DNA from: a phage
Sequence record: PZ445439.1
Strand: one strand, 5' to 3'
Length of the DNA stretch: 64,000 nucleotides
The notes under the pieces are model-generated. The model worked only from the letters and a program-made list of their open reading frames with translations. It made no database searches and was not told the DNA's origin. Of this stretch, positions 1,216 to 47,148 are shown piece by piece; positions within the stretch are counted from its first letter, which is position 1, and every line of letters begins with the position of its first letter. Both the position numbers and the translations under genes were made by a program.

Positions 1216-3912
1216 TCAGCCAAACAGGAAGTCTAACGAAGCTTTTTCTTCATAGTCCATACCAGCCGATTCACACATGCCTGCAAGCGGTTTAACAAAC
1301 GATTTTTGGAACAAAGTTGAGTAGTCAATCCAAGACAGTACGTCAGAACGAATTTCTTTTGGAAGTTCTGTACCCGACGGCCAAGCAATGCATTTGTCAC
1401 CAAATGGATTTCCTTCACGCAATGGAAGAACCATTACTTTATTTCCATCCAAAATTGGAGCTACACCTAAACCGCTAACAGCTCGACGATAAGTTAGCAC
1501 ACCACGAATATGGAACGGACATTTAAATCCTGGCCAACCTTTATCATCATATTTCGCTATATCGTTCGCAGTTTTTACTTCAGCAATAACTTTATAGTCA
1601 AGTTGACGATATTCTTTCTCGAAGTTCTTGTAATATTCTTGGACAGACTCTTCACCTTCCTGAAGAATACGACGAATACTTTCTTCGAGAGCTTCTTGGA
1701 CCGCTTTAGGCGTTGAACTCTGCTGAGTTTCCATACCCATGATTTTTAGATGCGGTTCAGCAAATCGCTTATCTTCCATATCATATACGTTCAGAGCATA
1801 ACGCTTTTTCGCTTTCCAAAATCCACCAACGCCCTTTGAACCAAGTGGAGGGCAAGAAATAGCTTCACGGTCCATATGCATCAGATGCTCGCGGTTATTC
1901 ATATAATCACATAACTCACGATATGCAACATCAATCATAGGTTCCATCTTTTTCTTACCGAACTGATTCATGAATTCAACTAAATCGTTCTGCTCTTTGA
2001 ATCGGTCAAGACCAACTTTTTCAATAACTTTATCTACACAAACATATACCGAATCAGTATCACCTGCTGCAATGAAATCTTCGCCATTAGTTCCGCATAC
2101 TTTATTCAGATATTCATTAATTTTACGAGCAATCCACTGAATACCAACTTGGCCGAAAATTGTGATAGCAGTAGCATTTCGCAAATCATAGTAACGGAAA
2201 TGAATATTACCAAGAGCACCGTAAAGGCTGTTAATAAGAATTTTACGGTTCAGCTGATTTGTATTAGCAAGTGTAGCCGCTTTTTCACATTCTTCAATCA
2301 AACTATTGAGAACAGATTCAGTATAATTCGATAGTTCATTTAAGAAATCATCACTGAACTTAACATATCGTTCAACTTCAGGTTTAGTTGAACAAGACCC
2401 TACGCCTTTCATAATAATCTTTTTAATAGCTTCGGCATTCATTTCTTCAGCGAACATTTTCTTTTTCCAATCTTTACGCTGGAAAAATACTTTAGCGATT
2501 TCCTTTGGAATGATACCTTCTTGATGCTTATCATACATCCATCCATTCGGAGAACAAGAATATTCATCACTCGGTTTAGGAGCTGTTCCTGCGATATATT
2601 CATGAATTGGATGAACTTTAAACTGACCACGAATAGTCTCAGGACTAATGTTAACCTGACGAATAATGCTCGGATACAGAGACGTCAAGTCAAAACTCAT
2701 AATATATCGACGAGCAATTGGTTTAGGTTCAAATACAAATGCACCCGGAAAACTTTGTTTAACGTGCGAACCTTGTTGAGGAATAACCTTGTGTTCACCT
2801 TTCAATGAGTTAAAAATAATAGCATCCCAAGTTTTAATAGGACTCATTACACCAGAAAAAGGCATTTTAGCGTAATAAGACATACTTAAAACTAGATCAA
2901 TAAACCCGCGAATTTTATCAATTGCTTGAACTGATTCTACGTCAATGATGTTATAACTAATGTATCGTTGATGATTAGTCTCACGAAGTTTATTAATAGG
3001 ACCGTCGTATGGTAATTTACCTTTTTTGGTTTCATGTTGAGCAACTGATTCCAAAGAGAATGACGGCAAATTAGTAAAAGCAAATTTCTTGTACAAATCT
3101 AAATAATCAAGAATAGATACACCATCAATAGAATAAATTTCTTTGCTGCCGTACATATTTTGAATTAGTTTAGATTTTACTCGACCGATTGGAGAGAAGC
3201 GTTTCATACTACGTTCACCGAGAACCATTTTAACGCGATTCATGATATACGGAACGTCAAATCCCTCAATATTCCAACCAGTAAAAATAGCAGGTCGTTT
3301 CTGTTCCCAGAGATTGATATATTCCATGAGCATATCACGCTCATTATCGAATGGCATATAAATTACTCGGTCAAGAATTTCTTGAGGAACTTCATCACCA
3401 CCTTCACAGTCAAGCTTAGCAGCTAACTTTGCATCCCATTTTGATACTGAACCATACATTGAATTCAAAAGGTCGAAAACATAAAAACGATCATCAATTG
3501 AATCGTAATGAGTGATAGCATCAATTTCATATTCAGCTTTCATTGGGTCAGGAAATTTATCACCAGTAACCTCAATGTCACAGTTAGCTACACGAACAAA
3601 TTTTCGGTCATAAACAATTTCTGAACCGTATGTATCACTGATATAAGCGAGTTTAAAATCGTTCATACCGAGAGCTTCGAGACCGATGTCTTCCATTCGT
3701 TTCATCCAATCTCGAGCATCTTTCATTGATGGAAATTTTTGAGGAGCGCAGTTTTTACCATAGATGTCTTTGTACTTTGACTCTTCCTTACAATGCCTAA
3801 ACATAGTTGGAAGATATTCTACTTCACGAGTACGTTCCTTTCCATTTTCATCAATATAACGTTCAACAATATTATTTCCGACTGTTTCAATAGAGATATA
3901 AAATTCTTTCAT
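1216..3912 (-). CDS. 43: DNA polymerase (family B) with 3'-5' exonuclease
   Basis: 898 aa; exo motif NCDIEV, pol motifs DLTSLYPSII and GDTDSVYV. Confidence 0.97.
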   Translation of the reverse strand: MKEFYISIETVGNNIVERYIDENGKERTREVEYLPTMFRHCKEESKYKDIYGKNCAPQKFPSMKDARDWMKRMEDIGLEALGMNDFKLAYISDTYGSEIVYDRKFVRVANCDIEVTGDKFPDPMKAEYEIDAITHYDSIDDRFYVFDLLNSMYGSVSKWDAKLAAKLDCEGGDEVPQEILDRVIYMPFDNERDMLMEYINLWEQKRPAIFTGWNIEGFDVPYIMNRVKMVLGERSMKRFSPIGRVKSKLIQNMYGSKEIYSIDGVSILDYLDLYKKFAFTNLPSFSLESVAQHETKKGKLPYDGPINKLRETNHQRYISYNIIDVESVQAIDKIRGFIDLVLSMSYYAKMPFSGVMSPIKTWDAIIFNSLKGEHKVIPQQGSHVKQSFPGAFVFEPKPIARRYIMSFDLTSLYPSIIRQVNISPETIRGQFKVHPIHEYIAGTAPKPSDEYSCSPNGWMYDKHQEGIIPKEIAKVFFQRKDWKKKMFAEEMNAEAIKKIIMKGVGSCSTKPEVERYVKFSDDFLNELSNYTESVLNSLIEECEKAATLANTNQLNRKILINSLYGALGNIHFRYYDLRNATAITIFGQVGIQWIARKINEYLNKVCGTNGEDFIAAGDTDSVYVCVDKVIEKVGLDRFKEQNDLVEFMNQFGKKKMEPMIDVAYRELCDYMNNREHLMHMDREAISCPPLGSKGVGGFWKAKKRYALNVYDMEDKRFAEPHLKIMGMETQQSSTPKAVQEALEESIRRILQEGEESVQEYYKNFEKEYRQLDYKVIAEVKTANDIAKYDDKGWPGFKCPFHIRGVLTYRRAVSGLGVAPILDGNKVMVLPLREGNPFGDKCIAWPSGTELPKEIRSDVLSWIDYSTLFQKSFVKPLAGMCESAGMDYEEKASLDFLFG

Positions 3913-3992: not shown

Positions 3993-4229
3993 TTAAATTT
4001 CTATTGTACGACGCGATATAACGGACTTGCCATCTGTATTTGTGGTTTTGATAATCGCATGAAATGCGCGTTGGCGTGGGTAAACTAATCGTTGGAATTC
4101 TTTTTGGAATTCTATTTGTTTATCTTCCGGGAGGTCAAAAACCAGTTGGGTAGAAGACAGACCATATGTTTGTTTTAGATTTTCGAATATTAGAAAAGCT
4201 TCGGTAAACTGAATCTCTGATTGTGTCAT
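3993..4229 (-). CDS. Hypothetical small protein between regA and gene 43
   Basis: ORF in regA-43 interval; internal ATG start just after regA stop. Confidence 0.3.
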   Translation of the reverse strand: MTQSEIQFTEAFLIFENLKQTYGLSSTQLVFDLPEDKQIEFQKEFQRLVYPRQRAFHAIIKTTNTDGKSVISRRTIEI

Positions 4230-4239
4230 ATAATTTACC

Positions 4240-4608
4240 TTAATTACCAATCGTATATTTAGGAACGAGTTTCCATTCATGTTTTTGTTTAAAAGAAATA
4301 ACTCGGAAGTTATTAGTTAAATCTTTCATAAAAGTTCTTTGACCAGGAACGATTTCAATCAGTCCCCAATCTTCTAATAGCCATGCAATCGAATCACGAC
4401 GAACTTCATCTTCTTCTGTCATTTCAACTTGACGGCCATCCATACGAAGCATTTCTTTAAAATGAACGATATAGTATAGTCCTTTTTTCTGAAGAATATG
4501 ACAGGACTGATACAGAACTTTATCTTTATTATTAGCAATTCCCATACGAGTCAAAGTTTCTTTTACTTTCAGAAAATCTTCAGGTTTTTTAAGAGTAATT
4601 TCAATCAT
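4240..4608 (-). CDS. regA: Translational repressor RegA
   Basis: 122 aa, matches recalled T4 RegA sequence and position. Confidence 0.92.
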   Translation of the reverse strand: MIEITLKKPEDFLKVKETLTRMGIANNKDKVLYQSCHILQKKGLYYIVHFKEMLRMDGRQVEMTEEDEVRRDSIAWLLEDWGLIEIVPGQRTFMKDLTNNFRVISFKQKHEWKLVPKYTIGN

Positions 4609-6185: not shown

Positions 6186-6872
6186 TTAAAAATCGTGGGT
6201 AGAATCAGCTTCAAGAGCTACTACATAATTCGCATGTTCACCTTCAAATTTAGCAGCACCTTGTTTACCTTTTGCCCAGAGCAGAAGTTTATAATTTCCT
6301 GGTTGCATTTTCATATTTGCCATATTGATAATGAAATTAAATGTATTTTCACCATCATAATCACCAAGAGTCAAAGAATATTTAACACGGGTCAGAGCAG
6401 AATCTTCTACTTTATTAAAACCGTTAATTACGATTTTACCTTCTTTTACCGTGATAGCAATTGTATCAATTTGCAGACCACGAGATACACGCAACAGTTG
6501 TTGAAGGTCTTCAGCTTTAATTTCAGTAACAACAGATGCTACCGGGAATGGAATTGGTTTATTAGGAGCAACTACTGTACTCGGATCGGCTGCTGGCCAA
6601 AAAATTGTTGAACGGGCATCAGCAATTTTAATATTTCCATCTTCTGACTGGGAAATTTCTGCATCATCATTAACTAGAGACAGAATACCGAGAAAACCGT
6701 TCAAATCGTAAATTGCTACATCAAAATCAATAACGTCAGAAATATTTGCTTCCGCATAAGTTGTACCATTAACTGCGCGAGTCATAATAAATTGACCGGA
6801 TTTAAGCATAATGCCAGAGTTAATAGTAGCGAAATTTTTCAAAATATTCAGTGTGTCTTTAGATAATTTCAT
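6186..6872 (-). CDS. 45: Sliding clamp
   Basis: 228 aa; position and length as T4 gp45. Confidence 0.93.
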   Translation of the reverse strand: MKLSKDTLNILKNFATINSGIMLKSGQFIMTRAVNGTTYAEANISDVIDFDVAIYDLNGFLGILSLVNDDAEISQSEDGNIKIADARSTIFWPAADPSTVVAPNKPIPFPVASVVTEIKAEDLQQLLRVSRGLQIDTIAITVKEGKIVINGFNKVEDSALTRVKYSLTLGDYDGENTFNFIINMANMKMQPGNYKLLLWAKGKQGAAKFEGEHANYVVALEADSTHDF

Positions 6873-7756
6873 TTCAATTTCCTATTTACATAATAGTTAG
6901 ACCAGGACCGTACAGCACCCTGATAAGATTCGTCGTTAAACCCATTAGCTACTGCAATTTTACGAAATTTATTATAACTTGGTTTTCCGTAAGCATGCCA
7001 TAAAGATTTTAATTCATCTTCATGTTCAATCCAAGTTCCTCTAGCTTTAGATTTTCTAAATTTTGATTTGAATTCCGGTAAATTATTTCTAACAGTTGCT
7101 TGAATTGAAGCTCTCTGTCTTCTTTCAGCATTATTCCATAATTCTTTTTGAGATTTAGAAATTTTTGATCTTACACTTTCTGAATTCATTATATCACTAA
7201 ACTTTTTAGCATAACTACAATTAAGATATTTCAATTTCATCTTATTTGAGAGTTTAAGCTTTTTCTCATCGGTCCAGTGATTCTTCATTGAATTAGATAT
7301 TTTGTATTTTACTTCAGAACTATGTTTGTAACCTTTACGAATACCGACATACTCAGGCGTAATTTCAGATTGCGAAAGCTTTACAATTTTTCCAGTTAAA
7401 ACATTTTTATATGTTCCATATCCTTTAGCACCAATTAAAGTATTTTCATCTGCGTATGCTTTATTAAAATATTTTATATTACTTTTTGCTTTAACTTTTA
7501 ATTGAAAAAATCTCTCCAATTTTCTTGGATCTAATATAGTTTCAGCTAAAATTTTGACGGTATATTTAGTGGTTTTAATAAGTTCAAAATATTCATCGCT
7601 ATAACTCGATGACACGCTTCCAGTATAAATCTTTCCAGCTGAATCAATTATATTTGTTCCATCGAAAATTGCGTTAATTTTTGAACCTATATAATAACAC
7701 GGAAAAATATTTTTAGCTTCCCGCTCTGGAAAGCTAATAAGATATACTAAATTCAT
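6869..7756 (-). mobile_element. GIY-YIG seg-like homing-endonuclease-related ORF (295 aa) with NUMOD3-like repeats
   Basis: N-terminal VYLIS...CYYIGS; C-terminal HSSEVKYKIS, HWTDEKKLKLS, SESVRSKISKS repeats; ATGA overlaps with rpbA and gene 45. Confidence 0.6.
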
Positions 7757-8142
7757 TTATTAAACTCGGCCACAATTGTTTCCGCAACAATTTGAGCAGC
7801 AACAATTAGACGTTCATCTGCATTACCACAATAATCATCTTCAAGGCGTTCACCACATGAAGTCATAATAAATTTAGCACCGGCGTTTAGGGATTCTGTA
7901 GTATGTTTGCGCATTAGTTCAATCCATTTATTACTTACTTCACGATCGATAGCTTCATAATACGCATGACGAGCAGGTGCAGATTTAATTTTGTTCTGAA
8001 TAACTTCCATTGCGTTATCAGAAAGAGACAAAACCCATGCTCGACGAATTTTATTTTGGTTTTGTGGATTTGATTCAGAACGCACGTGTTTTGGCTGAAT
8101 ATCTTTTACGTCAACAGTATAATTCACAGTAATTTTAGTCAT
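7753..8142 (-). CDS. rpbA: RNA polymerase-binding protein RpbA (assigned by position and length)
   Basis: 129 aa ORF upstream of gene 45. Confidence 0.5.
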
Positions 8143-10525: not shown

Positions 10526-11541
10526 TGTGTTGCCTCTACATATAGCTGATTTGCATATTGAATAAGTGCTTCACGGTCAGAATCAGTGATGTCTGGAATT
10601 GCATTAATGTATTCTTCCATCAACGTCTGAAGCGATTGAACTTCAACTTCTTCACTGTCATCTGACTCGACAGAGTTATCAATTTTTGACACAACTCGTA
10701 ATGAATGCACAACTTTTTCTAGTTCAGATTCGAACTTCGTCAGATTTTTGTCTACCTCAGTTACTATAACACGTACTGATAGATTTGTAAAATCTTTATA
10801 GTCAATTTTTCCTTTAAATGGATAATGAATTCTACGATGCCAGGTAGTATTGTTTGGAATAAATTCCATTCGTTCTGTTTCTGTATCAAACATCCAGAAC
10901 CCACGAGGGTCATTCTCGTCACCTGCAGTTAGTGTCCATGGTGTCCCAATATATCTGACGTTAGCAGCCTCAGAGATAGTATGGAAGTGACCAGACCACA
11001 CTTCTTTATAAGTCTTAAGGAAATCAGGTTCAAGACCGTGAGATTTCATTCCTTTATAAAAATAAAATCCATTCAGTTCCCAGTGACCAACACAAAAAGA
11101 AGCAGATGAAGTTTTGATGTGCTCAAGAATTTCACCAGTATTTTCTTCACACATCCAAGGAATCAAATCAATCAAACACCCGTCAAAATCTACCGTAGTA
11201 GGCTTATCATATACTTTAACATTAGGATATTTAGCCAAAAGCTCAGTAGAAGCATTTGGATGCATTACATTTTTGTAGTGGAGATCGTGATTTCCTACAA
11301 TAGTATGTAATGTGATTCCAGCATCATCAAGCATTTGAACTATTTCACGGGCAAACTCCATAGTTTTATGTGTGATTGCTTTTCGCACATCAAAAATATC
11401 ACCATATTGAATCCATACAGTAATTCCATTTTTCTTAGAATATTCTATCGCTTGCTTAATTCCATCAATTTGAATACCGCGAATCCACTCATCATCAGCT
11501 TTAACGCCTAAATGCCAATCACCCAAGTTTAGTATTTTCAT
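10522..11541 (-). CDS. 47: Recombination endonuclease subunit (Mre11/SbcD-like phosphoesterase)
   Basis: 339 aa; motifs GDWHLG, GDIFD, GNHD. Confidence 0.95.
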   Translation of the reverse strand: MKILNLGDWHLGVKADDEWIRGIQIDGIKQAIEYSKKNGITVWIQYGDIFDVRKAITHKTMEFAREIVQMLDDAGITLHTIVGNHDLHYKNVMHPNASTELLAKYPNVKVYDKPTTVDFDGCLIDLIPWMCEENTGEILEHIKTSSASFCVGHWELNGFYFYKGMKSHGLEPDFLKTYKEVWSGHFHTISEAANVRYIGTPWTLTAGDENDPRGFWMFDTETERMEFIPNNTTWHRRIHYPFKGKIDYKDFTNLSVRVIVTEVDKNLTKFESELEKVVHSLRVVSKIDNSVESDDSEEVEVQSLQTLMEEYINAIPDITDSDREALIQYANQLYVEATQ

Positions 11542-12142
11542 GGTGTCTTTTCCATCCTAATTTAGCTGCTTTTGAAACCAGTTCTTTAATTTTTCCTTTT
11601 GTCCATTCAGGACCAGGAGGTTCATGACATAACATTTGCTTAACTCCGTTATTATACCATTTTTTACCTTTATTATGTGATGAAGCTTTAAATTTATTTG
11701 ACCTTCCTTTTACATAACCTTCTGGAATATAAGGCAAAAAGGCAGATTTTCCTGTTAATGGATCATGTGAATGTATATTTCCTTTACAATTATGAGAACC
11801 ATATAATGGATGATTTTGTCCTTTATTATCTCTTCCAAATGAACCTTTTGGAGCAGCATATGACATATTAAAGAATAATGGATTTTTAACTGCATCATGC
11901 AATCGTTGATAATATAACTCGCATTTAATAGCTTCTTCACGCGTATCAAATTCAGCTAAAATGCATGAATCAAATAAGTGAGGATTATCTGAAAGCTCTT
12001 TATTATAAATTTTCTTATACTTTTTAGATAAAACTGAACCATGATATCCAGCTAAATGCCTATCTAAAGACGTAGATCCAATATAAAAAGGAGGAAGTTT
12101 ATCTCCACTATATATTGTTAAATAAGTTATATATTTTTTCAT
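11519..12142 (-). mobile_element. GIY-YIG seg-like endonuclease ORF (207 aa)
   Basis: TYLT...PFYIGS, then R-x3-H, conserved Glu and Asn; C-terminal IPEGYVKGR as in segB. Confidence 0.6.
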
Positions 12143-32552: not shown

Positions 32553-32740
32553 TATTCCACCACATATGAAAGAGAGAATATTGCACACGCCATGTGAGTT
32601 GCAACTTCATCACACATATTATAGCGTTTCTTAAGAAGTTCTACAAGTTCTTCACTAGTAACTTCATCCATGTCGACGAAAAAATCACCATTAATGATGA
32701 CGTAAATATTTCCTTCTTTATTGAGTGCTTCAATTTTCAT
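32552..32740 (-). CDS. Hypothetical protein
   Basis: Start set at [10 protein letters not shown] downstream of the promoter. Confidence 0.45.
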
Positions 32741-46482: not shown

Positions 46483-47148
46483 TTAAAATTTCATTTTTCG
46501 ACCTTTAAACCATCCTTCTGGAATTGGGTCAGTTTTCTTAATACGTTTAGAAACTTTTTCATCTAATGAATGAATCCACATCATACCAAATTGGGAATTC
46601 TTTTCACCTTTTTGGTGATTATTTTTAGCATGAATTTCTTTCATTTTATTAATAGTTTCAGGAGTATGGGTCTTACCCAAGAAAGATTTAGTATTTAAAA
46701 ATTTCTCTCTATACTTAGGATTATCCCAAAGCTGTTTAAACCTTTCTGAACCCATTTTACGATATTTTTCTTTAAGGTCTGGGTCGTTCTCAAATCTGGT
46801 TTTAAAAGCAGCAGCCCCTTTTAAGGAAGCTTCTTTCTTTTTATCCAAATATTCTTTAGTGTTTAAATGGTCCCAACCACCTTCACCACCTAATTTCAAA
46901 TTATAAACATCAGGGCGCTTTAAAAACTCTTCAGTCAAAATATTCTTTTCTGACTCAAACATAGAGGTTTTATCGTCAAAGAACTCTAATATTTCTTTAG
47001 AGAAATTTTCTATACCATACTTGTCTTGGGCTCTTTTTAATAATTTACCAGAACCCATATATCCATCATCTAAATTTTCGGTAGAATGAGCGCCTATATA
47101 GATTTTATTATTAATTTTATTTGTTATTTTATAAGTGTAATGGAACAT
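46483..47148 (-). mobile_element. segB: GIY-YIG homing endonuclease SegB
   Basis: 221 aa; YTYKITNKINNKIYIGA motif; sits inside the tRNA cluster as T4 segB. Confidence 0.85.

Follow-up and report, generated by a model that had tools for sequence, protein, structure and literature searches.

A probable SegG-like homing endonuclease gene in place of the rpbA-45 spacer of a Tequatrovirus

Free-standing homing endonucleases that have been characterised are a handful: SegA-G, MobE, SegH and Hef. T4 SegG, the product of gene 32.1, is an active nuclease that cuts DNA and brings about marker exclusion (PMC2988022, Table 1 and text), and both the middle and the late promoters of gene 32 lie inside segG (PMC2988022). 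Homing endonuclease genes are unequally distributed even among the closest relatives of T4 (PMC2993671, Table 5). The window analysed here, a stretch of 64,000 nucleotides from phage record PZ445439.1, is a segment of a Tequatrovirus (T4-like) genome that shares approximately 97% identity with GiZh and related phages across 25 kb. Between rpbA and gene 45 it carries an open reading frame (ORF) of 295 amino acids with an ATG start (positions 6869 to 7756, minus strand, as are all features of the window given below). A previous reading made from the letters alone, called here the sequence-only reading, had taken this ORF for a Seg-type gene whose nuclease might be degenerate or domesticated. We consider it, with a probability of roughly 0.85, to be a functional free-standing GIY-YIG homing endonuclease gene of the T4 Seg type, which belongs to a SegG-like sub-clade and replaces the 55-bp rpbA-45 spacer.

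Residues 1-102 of the predicted protein were 40% identical to T4 SegG by tblastn and BLASTP (E 1e-16, alignment over 103 amino acids), and PHROG 655, labelled 'homing endonuclease', matched the protein over its full length (6.6e-33). An exhaustive profile search returned a homologous family of 268 clusters at E<1e-3. AlphaFold2 modelled residues 1-108 confidently (pLDDT 93.8), with the same top match when the full-length model was used, and the three-stranded beta-sheet and alpha-helix of the GIY-YIG catalytic fold are present. This N-terminal catalytic domain (residues 1-105, positions 7442 to 7756) contains Y5, Y22-I-G24-S-K26, Y44-x-G46-S47, E81 and N98. V4-Y5 falls in a predicted strand at residues 2-8 and Y22-I23-G24 in a strand at 21-26, which provides both the GIY-type Tyr and the YIG; among 142 relatives, Y5 is found in 138, and Y22 and G24 are invariant. 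Both N-terminal motifs named by the sequence-only reading, VYLIS (residues 4-8) and CYYIGS (20-25), are there, separated by 11 residues and not by the 13 it had counted. The spacing from Y5 to YIG is 16 residues instead of the usual 10-11 because a short helix occupies residues 10-14. The catalytic Glu, E81, lies in a helix at 78-87 and is kept in 141 of the 142 relatives, while N98, part of a YFN motif, is kept in every one.

An alternative register, in which Y22 would be the Tyr of GIY and Y44 the Tyr of YIG, was considered and judged less likely from the model, whose long strands are 2-8, 21-26 and 66-73. It is also disfavoured by the sister ORF at 11519-12142, which reads PPFYIGS...DRH...GYHGS and thus has Y-x-G-S as a separate Seg motif downstream of YIG. 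When the family profile was aligned by hhalign to the single I-TevI sequence, 12 columns aligned and Y44-x-G-S was paired with the YVGS of I-TevI, and the HMMER alignment to SegA placed YYIGSK on the GIY strand of SegA. Neither phmmer of the protein against the PDB sequences nor a 45-sequence family profile run against the same set gave anything relevant.

The catalytic domain is followed by a linker rich in Lys and Arg with three NUMOD3-like helical repeats (positions 7139 to 7324), namely residues 145-160 (HSSEVKYKISNSMKNH), 161-176 (WTDEKKLKLSNKMKLK) and 191-206 (NSESVRSKISKSQKEL). Repeats 2 and 3 scored 29 and 28 by BLOSUM against repeat 1, the maxima from shuffled sequences having a 95th percentile of 25 and a 99th of 30. 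Only repeat 1 matched Pfam NUMOD3 (PF07460), and that marginally (residues 142-158, E 0.1, 13 bits against a gathering threshold of 20.4 bits), but many relatives in the family exceed this cutoff with 23-33 bits, and the structure model has consecutive helices across residues 147-233. Since three internal repeats are detectable and relatives score above the NUMOD3 cutoff, the repeats are NUMOD3-like and diverged; those which the sequence-only reading had seen in the lysine-rich C-terminal half are real, though a single one touches the Pfam model. The protein ends in a small helical, helix-turn-helix-like domain (residues approximately 240-290, positions 6887 to 7039, 'LWxxxGKP...GFxxxSY') that shares 38% identity with the T4 SegA C-terminus (E 5e-5), with 'ELKSLWHAYGKPSYNKFRKIAVANGFNDESY' here corresponding to 'KIKEIWENSGKPGAIKLKKLAIEAGFPNKSY' in SegA. 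A GIY-YIG domain, NUMOD3-like repeats and a SegA-like C-terminus together make up a Seg endonuclease architecture with a SegG-like head and a SegA-like tail. Profile searches without any GIY-YIG or NUMOD relationship had been named in advance as an outcome that would count against the Seg assignment, and this outcome did not arise.

Compared with SegG, the protein shares the pattern MN(I/L)VY...P-YYIGSK...Y-x-(G/S)-S...E...YFN, and the canonical Arg is found in neither. Both genes are free-standing, co-oriented with their neighbours and located immediately upstream of an essential replication gene, and the embedding of the downstream gene's promoters within the coding sequence of SegG (PMC2988022) has a likely counterpart here, as described below. 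The two differ in locus (between genes 59 and 32 for segG, between rpbA and gene 45 here) and in length (210 against 295 amino acids), and SegG has been characterised experimentally, whereas the 295-amino-acid protein is known from sequence. After residue 105 or so they are unrelated, SegG having neither the NUMOD3-like repeats nor the SegA-like C-terminal domain, and so the target specificity must differ from that of SegG. SegA, like the SegA-F group in general, has in common with this protein a GIY-YIG domain, a basic linker, a C-terminal helical domain and a Y-x-G-S after YIG, but its N-terminal domain matches the family profile weakly (17 bits), its insertion site is different, and approximately 11 residues separate YIG from YxGSG in SegA against approximately 20 in the SegG-like clade, where a beta-hairpin insertion is predicted. 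The likeness to I-TevI of the T4 td intron consists of a catalytic domain, a NUMOD3-containing linker and a small helical DNA-binding domain; there is no significant sequence match, and I-TevI belongs to an intron and possesses R27 and a zinc finger, whereas the present protein is free-standing and has neither the Arg nor a Cys4 zinc finger. On everything that can be judged in silico the gene qualifies as Seg-type, and it would be expected to work in the same way as T4 segG and segF.

The gene order on the minus strand is 46, 45.2, rpbA (7753-8142), the endonuclease ORF, gene 45 (6186-6872), 44, 62, regA and 43, where the flanking ORFs are RpbA (129 amino acids) and gp45 (228 amino acids) according to the annotation of near-identical phages. 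The ORF is joined to both neighbours by ATGA overlaps, exactly as the sequence-only reading had placed it: at positions 7753 to 7756 its ATG (7756-7754) overlaps the rpbA TGA (7755-7753), and at 6869 to 6872 its TGA (6871-6869) overlaps the gene 45 ATG (6872-6870), an overlap that is kept in phages AV118 and TH15. In T4 and slur14 a 55-bp rpbA-45 spacer fills the site, and this spacer is precisely replaced by the ORF in carriers; T4 itself has no gene at this position, in agreement with the sequence-only reading. A 2.3-kb query across the locus matched 625 Tequatrovirus phage records, of which 24 contain the endonuclease ORF, while the others, which have the 55-bp spacer, align as two pieces without it (62% coverage). 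Intactness was checked in six intact Tequatrovirus copies and in AV118 and TH15, the remaining carrier records being matched by BLAST only. Orthologues were located in the same slot in Mosigvirus (10 of approximately 154 close records) and Gaprivervirus (3 of approximately 34, TH15 and VR26 among them), which puts carriers at approximately 5-9% of genomes in these two genera. Orthologues are 96-99.7% identical within Tequatrovirus and 55-59% identical in Mosigvirus and Gaprivervirus. A free-standing, co-oriented ORF is thus found between conserved genes, present or absent among close relatives with intact flanks. This sporadic presence is the classic pattern of a homing endonuclease gene and refutes the alternative that the ORF is a conserved resident of the interval in T-even genomes, and together with the SegG homology, PHROG 655 and the domain layout it bears out the Seg-family assignment. 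The same gene in the same slot of SHBML-50-1, GiZh, EC121, AV118 and VR26 is annotated as 'homing endonuclease', 'putative DNA endonuclease' or 'hypothetical protein', and RefSeq curators already label some orthologues 'homing endonuclease'; literature searches returned no functional study of, or gene name for, an endonuclease at the rpbA/45 site.

The junctions were compared between seven loci with the gene and four without it, using approximately 1.3 kb of flank on each side. The sole fixed differences between carriers and non-carriers were the last two rpbA codons, at the left junction (positions 7753 to 7761, AAT AAA TGA in carriers and AAT CGT TAA in non-carriers), and three silent changes in gene 45 codons 3 and 6 (positions 6855 to 6866, TTA and GAC in carriers, CTG and GAT in non-carriers), which are candidates for target-site immunity. 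The remaining flank polymorphisms are common to both allele classes, and the gene is found in at least two flanking haplotypes. Across genera, alleles that lack the gene share ATGAAA(C/T)T(G/C)TCTAAAGA(T/C) at the start of gene 45. Carrier alleles are recoded there, and more strongly outside Tequatrovirus: Mosigvirus carriers read CTT AGC CGT GAA and Gaprivervirus carriers TTT AGT CGT GAC, so that serine codons are switched from TCT to AGY and residue 5 is changed (K5R). We infer that the recoded gene 45 codons 3-6 provide target-site immunity and that the enzyme recognises the gene 45 start region. The cut made by a Seg enzyme may be tens to hundreds of base pairs away from its insertion point.

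Replacement of the spacer also affects the promoter of gene 45. The start of the T4 middle promoter P45 was mapped at 32626 (PMC2988021, Table 1), which is between the end of gene 45 at 32590 and the start of rpbA at 32646 and therefore inside the spacer replaced by the endonuclease gene; the promoter sequence in the T4 spacer is TTGCTTTA-N10-TATAAA. In the 3' part of the endonuclease gene, approximately 100 nt upstream of the gene 45 ATG, is a candidate MotA-dependent middle promoter for gene 45 (positions 6971 to 6998), composed of a box GCATGCTTAC, a 12-bp spacer and a -10 element TATAAT. The published criteria for a middle promoter are a MotA box (a/t)3TGCTTtA at 12±1 bp from an excellent -10 element, with deviations in the box being tolerated (PMC2988021), and the embedded element conforms to this consensus and would be expected to act as a promoter. 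The pattern TGCTTN{12,15}TATAAT has six matches in the window against 0.68 expected, an approximately 9-fold enrichment, and one of the other five is just upstream of gene 45.2, where T4 P45.2 was mapped (PMC2988021, Table 1). The element is present at the same codons in AV118 (ATTGCTTTA-N12-TATATT) and TH15 (AATGCTTTA-N12-TATATT), in both with a perfect TGCTTTA box and a 12-bp spacer, and this spacer differs at synonymous positions among AV118, TH15 and the window copy. The Shine-Dalgarno sequence of gene 45, AGGAAA (positions 6878 to 6883), is encoded by the last codons of the endonuclease gene (N-R-K-x-K-stop), and all three genera retain the sequence that carries it, AAT AGG AAA nnn AAA TGA. 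Within several kb of the locus there was no T4 late promoter (TATAAATA), and generic sigma-70-like sites were not enriched (12 found, 14.4 expected).

Two further motifs of this kind were observed in the orthologues. In the AV118 carrier allele (L004, approximately 2985-3013) the end of rpbA keeps a MotA-box-like TGCTTGA with TAATAT 12 nt later, over the endonuclease start codon; this may be what is left of P45, or a variant of it, and transcription from it would start within the endonuclease gene. A second internal match to a MotA box and -10 element, TGCTTTAAAATTTAAAGATATAAT, lies at the codons for ALKFKDIM in the Mosigvirus (L004, approximately 3549-3572) and Gaprivervirus (L005, approximately 3546-3569) orthologues. 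At these codons the window copy has TGCTA, which breaks the motif.

Several observations weigh against the interpretation of the locus as a functional Seg-type gene that carries a substitute gene 45 promoter. The protein did not match the Pfam GIY-YIG models PF01541 and PF19835 even at E<10; among 45 family members, 13 matched PF19835 (SegE_GIY-YIG) weakly (best E 1.5e-4) and three matched PF01541. The canonical catalytic Arg, located some 6-10 residues after YIG (R27 in I-TevI), is absent, as the sequence-only reading had correctly noticed. The Tequatrovirus carrier allele keeps TCTAAAGA unchanged, and the argument for immunity thus depends mainly on the insertion itself and two silent codon changes. 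Endonuclease identity between genera is 55-62%, compared with 45-79% for the flanking RpbA and gp45, which also fits long vertical residence with repeated loss. The embedded promoter motif overlaps the conserved codons W-x-A-L/Y-G-K-P, and its conservation may partly be due to protein constraint; moreover, the MotA box of the window copy, TGCTTAC, departs from the consensus.

The missing Arg and the lack of a Pfam GIY-YIG match would be expected of a nuclease-dead, domesticated derivative, a DNA-binding regulator or pure spacer retained for the embedded gene 45 promoter and Shine-Dalgarno sequence. Selection against deletion would follow from those embedded signals, and position 49, which is K or R in 72 of 142 relatives, is S here. 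We nevertheless regard such a derivative as unlikely. An Arg after YIG is conserved nowhere in the SegG-like clade, SegG included, and since active SegG (PMC2988022) likewise does without it, its absence is a trait of the clade and not decay. An insertion of approximately 20 residues, predicted to form a beta-hairpin, follows the invariant K26 and separates YIGSK from the Y-x-G-S motif, whereas the seg-like ORF at 11519-12142 of the same window reads PPFYIGSTSLDRH..GYHGS (YIGSTSLDRH), the canonical arrangement with the Arg, and has Y-x-G-S downstream of the Arg position. The residues that are invariant or nearly so across the 142 members (Y5, P19, Y22, I23, G24, S25, K26, N28, Y44, G46, S47, E81 and N98) are all kept in the window copy. 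Two Tequatrovirus sub-lineages differ by 11-13 synonymous and 4-5 non-synonymous changes, a ratio of non-synonymous to synonymous polymorphism (pN/pS) of 0.08-0.11, and for divergence between genera the corresponding ratio (dN/dS) is 0.14-0.23. Both ratios indicate purifying selection, which covers the whole length of the gene. A pure promoter carrier would not hold a frame of 295 codons open in three genera, and the gene has a patchy distribution instead of being fixed. The suggestion of a degenerate or domesticated nuclease is therefore not upheld, given the clade-wide loss of the Arg, the retained invariant residues and the low pN/pS.

Vertical residence, in which the gene would be an old inhabitant of the rpbA-45 interval that was lost many times and is not currently mobile, draws on the occupation of the same slot in three genera and on a divergence comparable to that of the flanking genes. 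It is, if anything, slightly less probable than a dead nuclease: the losses would need to regenerate the same 55-bp spacer and a working P45 in approximately 95% of genomes, the Tequatrovirus copies are 96-99.7% identical yet occur in at least two flanking haplotypes, and fixed differences restricted to the junctions, with recoded gene 45 codons, are the mark that homing and target immunity leave. That the frame is open by chance or results from a mis-assembly, for which only the AT-rich and lysine-rich composition speaks, is very improbable, as the ORF runs its full length in AV118 and TH15 and in each of the six intact Tequatrovirus copies, its fold is predicted with confidence, it has 268 homologous clusters, and its dN/dS is well below 1. 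A functional SegG-like homing endonuclease gene is accordingly the reading that we prefer. In one record the frame is broken: the ESh24 copy (L009, 2270-3158; an UNVERIFIED record) has an additional T at nt 247, within a T6 run, and falls into two ORFs of 88 and 139 amino acids; this could be either a decaying copy or a homopolymer sequencing error.

For the preferred reading, a homing endonuclease gene of the Seg type, the following sequence of events is proposed. The protein would bind DNA through its NUMOD3-like repeats and SegA-like C-terminal helical domain and, in a mixed infection, would cut the empty allele of a co-infecting relative. The likeliest target lies in or close to the stretch, conserved across genera, that comprises the translation-initiation region of gene 45 and its first six codons. 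Recombinational repair from the carrier genome would then copy the gene and short flanks into the cut genome. Two things would protect the carrier genome itself, the splitting of the site by the insertion and the recoding of gene 45 codons 3-6. The insertion would have removed P45, and the cassette would supply in its 3' coding sequence a substitute MotA-box/-10 promoter and the gene 45 Shine-Dalgarno sequence; since these signals are inside the cassette, expression of the essential clamp gene would continue, and a phage that simply deleted the endonuclease gene would pay a cost. A broader, tentative proposal, which we think has somewhat less than an even chance of being right as a whole, combines two parts. 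In the first, the SegG-like clade would be a distinct GIY-YIG catalytic variant in which a beta-hairpin replaces the Arg segment and Lys26 (of YIGSK) and Y-x-G-S take over; in the second, the gene would persist in at least three Tevenvirinae genera by 'addiction', which may have come about through the deletion of P45, the re-encoding in frame of a MotA-dependent promoter and the gene 45 Shine-Dalgarno sequence, and the targeting by the nuclease of the strongly constrained start region of the clamp gene.

As for expression of the endonuclease gene itself, a recognisable Shine-Dalgarno sequence or promoter of its own was found in none of the three genera. The gene starts on the rpbA stop or directly next to it, which makes low-level translation by coupling likely, and in the window this would probably occur through the ATGA overlap with rpbA. 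A 10-bp hairpin followed by a T-rich run is located 19 nt inside the ORF (positions 7713 to 7737) and is a possible attenuator of read-through from rpbA. The hairpin is identical in all seven Tequatrovirus copies, with a z-score in context of -1.1 to -1.4, but it is not positionally conserved, as TH15 has a different 12-bp hairpin at other codons (L005, approximately 3027-3063, z -3.1) and AV118 has none. The 5' hairpins of Tequatrovirus and TH15 may be analogous regulatory structures or a coincidence.

Other insertions were observed in the window and in related phages. A second seg-like GIY-YIG ORF of 207 amino acids is located between gene 47 and alpha-gt (11519-12142), keeps the canonical Arg in YIGS..DRH, and matches Pfam GIY-YIG (E 3e-4), PHROG 10820 (1e-94) and the SegG-family profile (4e-11); the label 'HNH endonuclease' of PHROG 10820 is probably a misnomer. 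A third, of 221 amino acids (46483-47148), shares 53% identity with T4 SegA across the nuclease domain, exceeds the Pfam GIY-YIG cutoff with 26.3 bits and matches NUMOD3 marginally. With the ORF at 6869-7756, the window thus contains at least three Seg-type genes. The replication cluster differs in gene content at another place as well: between gene 43 and regA the window has a small ORF (3993-4280, approximately 73 amino acids by phrog_3826), and T4T a gap of only 78 bp. Phage N2 carries an oppositely oriented HNH gene between 45.2 and 46 (L011, 3796-4512, plus strand), and phage PSD2001 an oppositely oriented 'homing endonuclease' just upstream of gene 45.2 (L018, 1-342, minus strand). The region from gene 46 to gene 45 appears to be a hot spot for the insertion of endonuclease genes.

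The gene described here is an uncharacterised member of a well-known class, and it changes no concept in the field. What is new in this analysis is the candidate substitute promoter and the Shine-Dalgarno sequence of gene 45 embedded in the endonuclease gene, and the recoded first codons of gene 45 that mark the probable target site. Where a T4-like genome has a 'hypothetical protein' annotated at the rpbA/45 locus, as many do, the entry should be 'SegG-like GIY-YIG homing endonuclease'. Among the T-even phages, mosaicism and marker exclusion are shaped by free-standing enzymes of this kind, and this locus adds an insertion site directly upstream of the essential sliding-clamp gene, with the gene 45 start region as the predicted target. 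Together with segG and gene 32, it would make two cases in which an endonuclease gene has taken over the promoter and ribosome-binding site of the essential gene that follows it.

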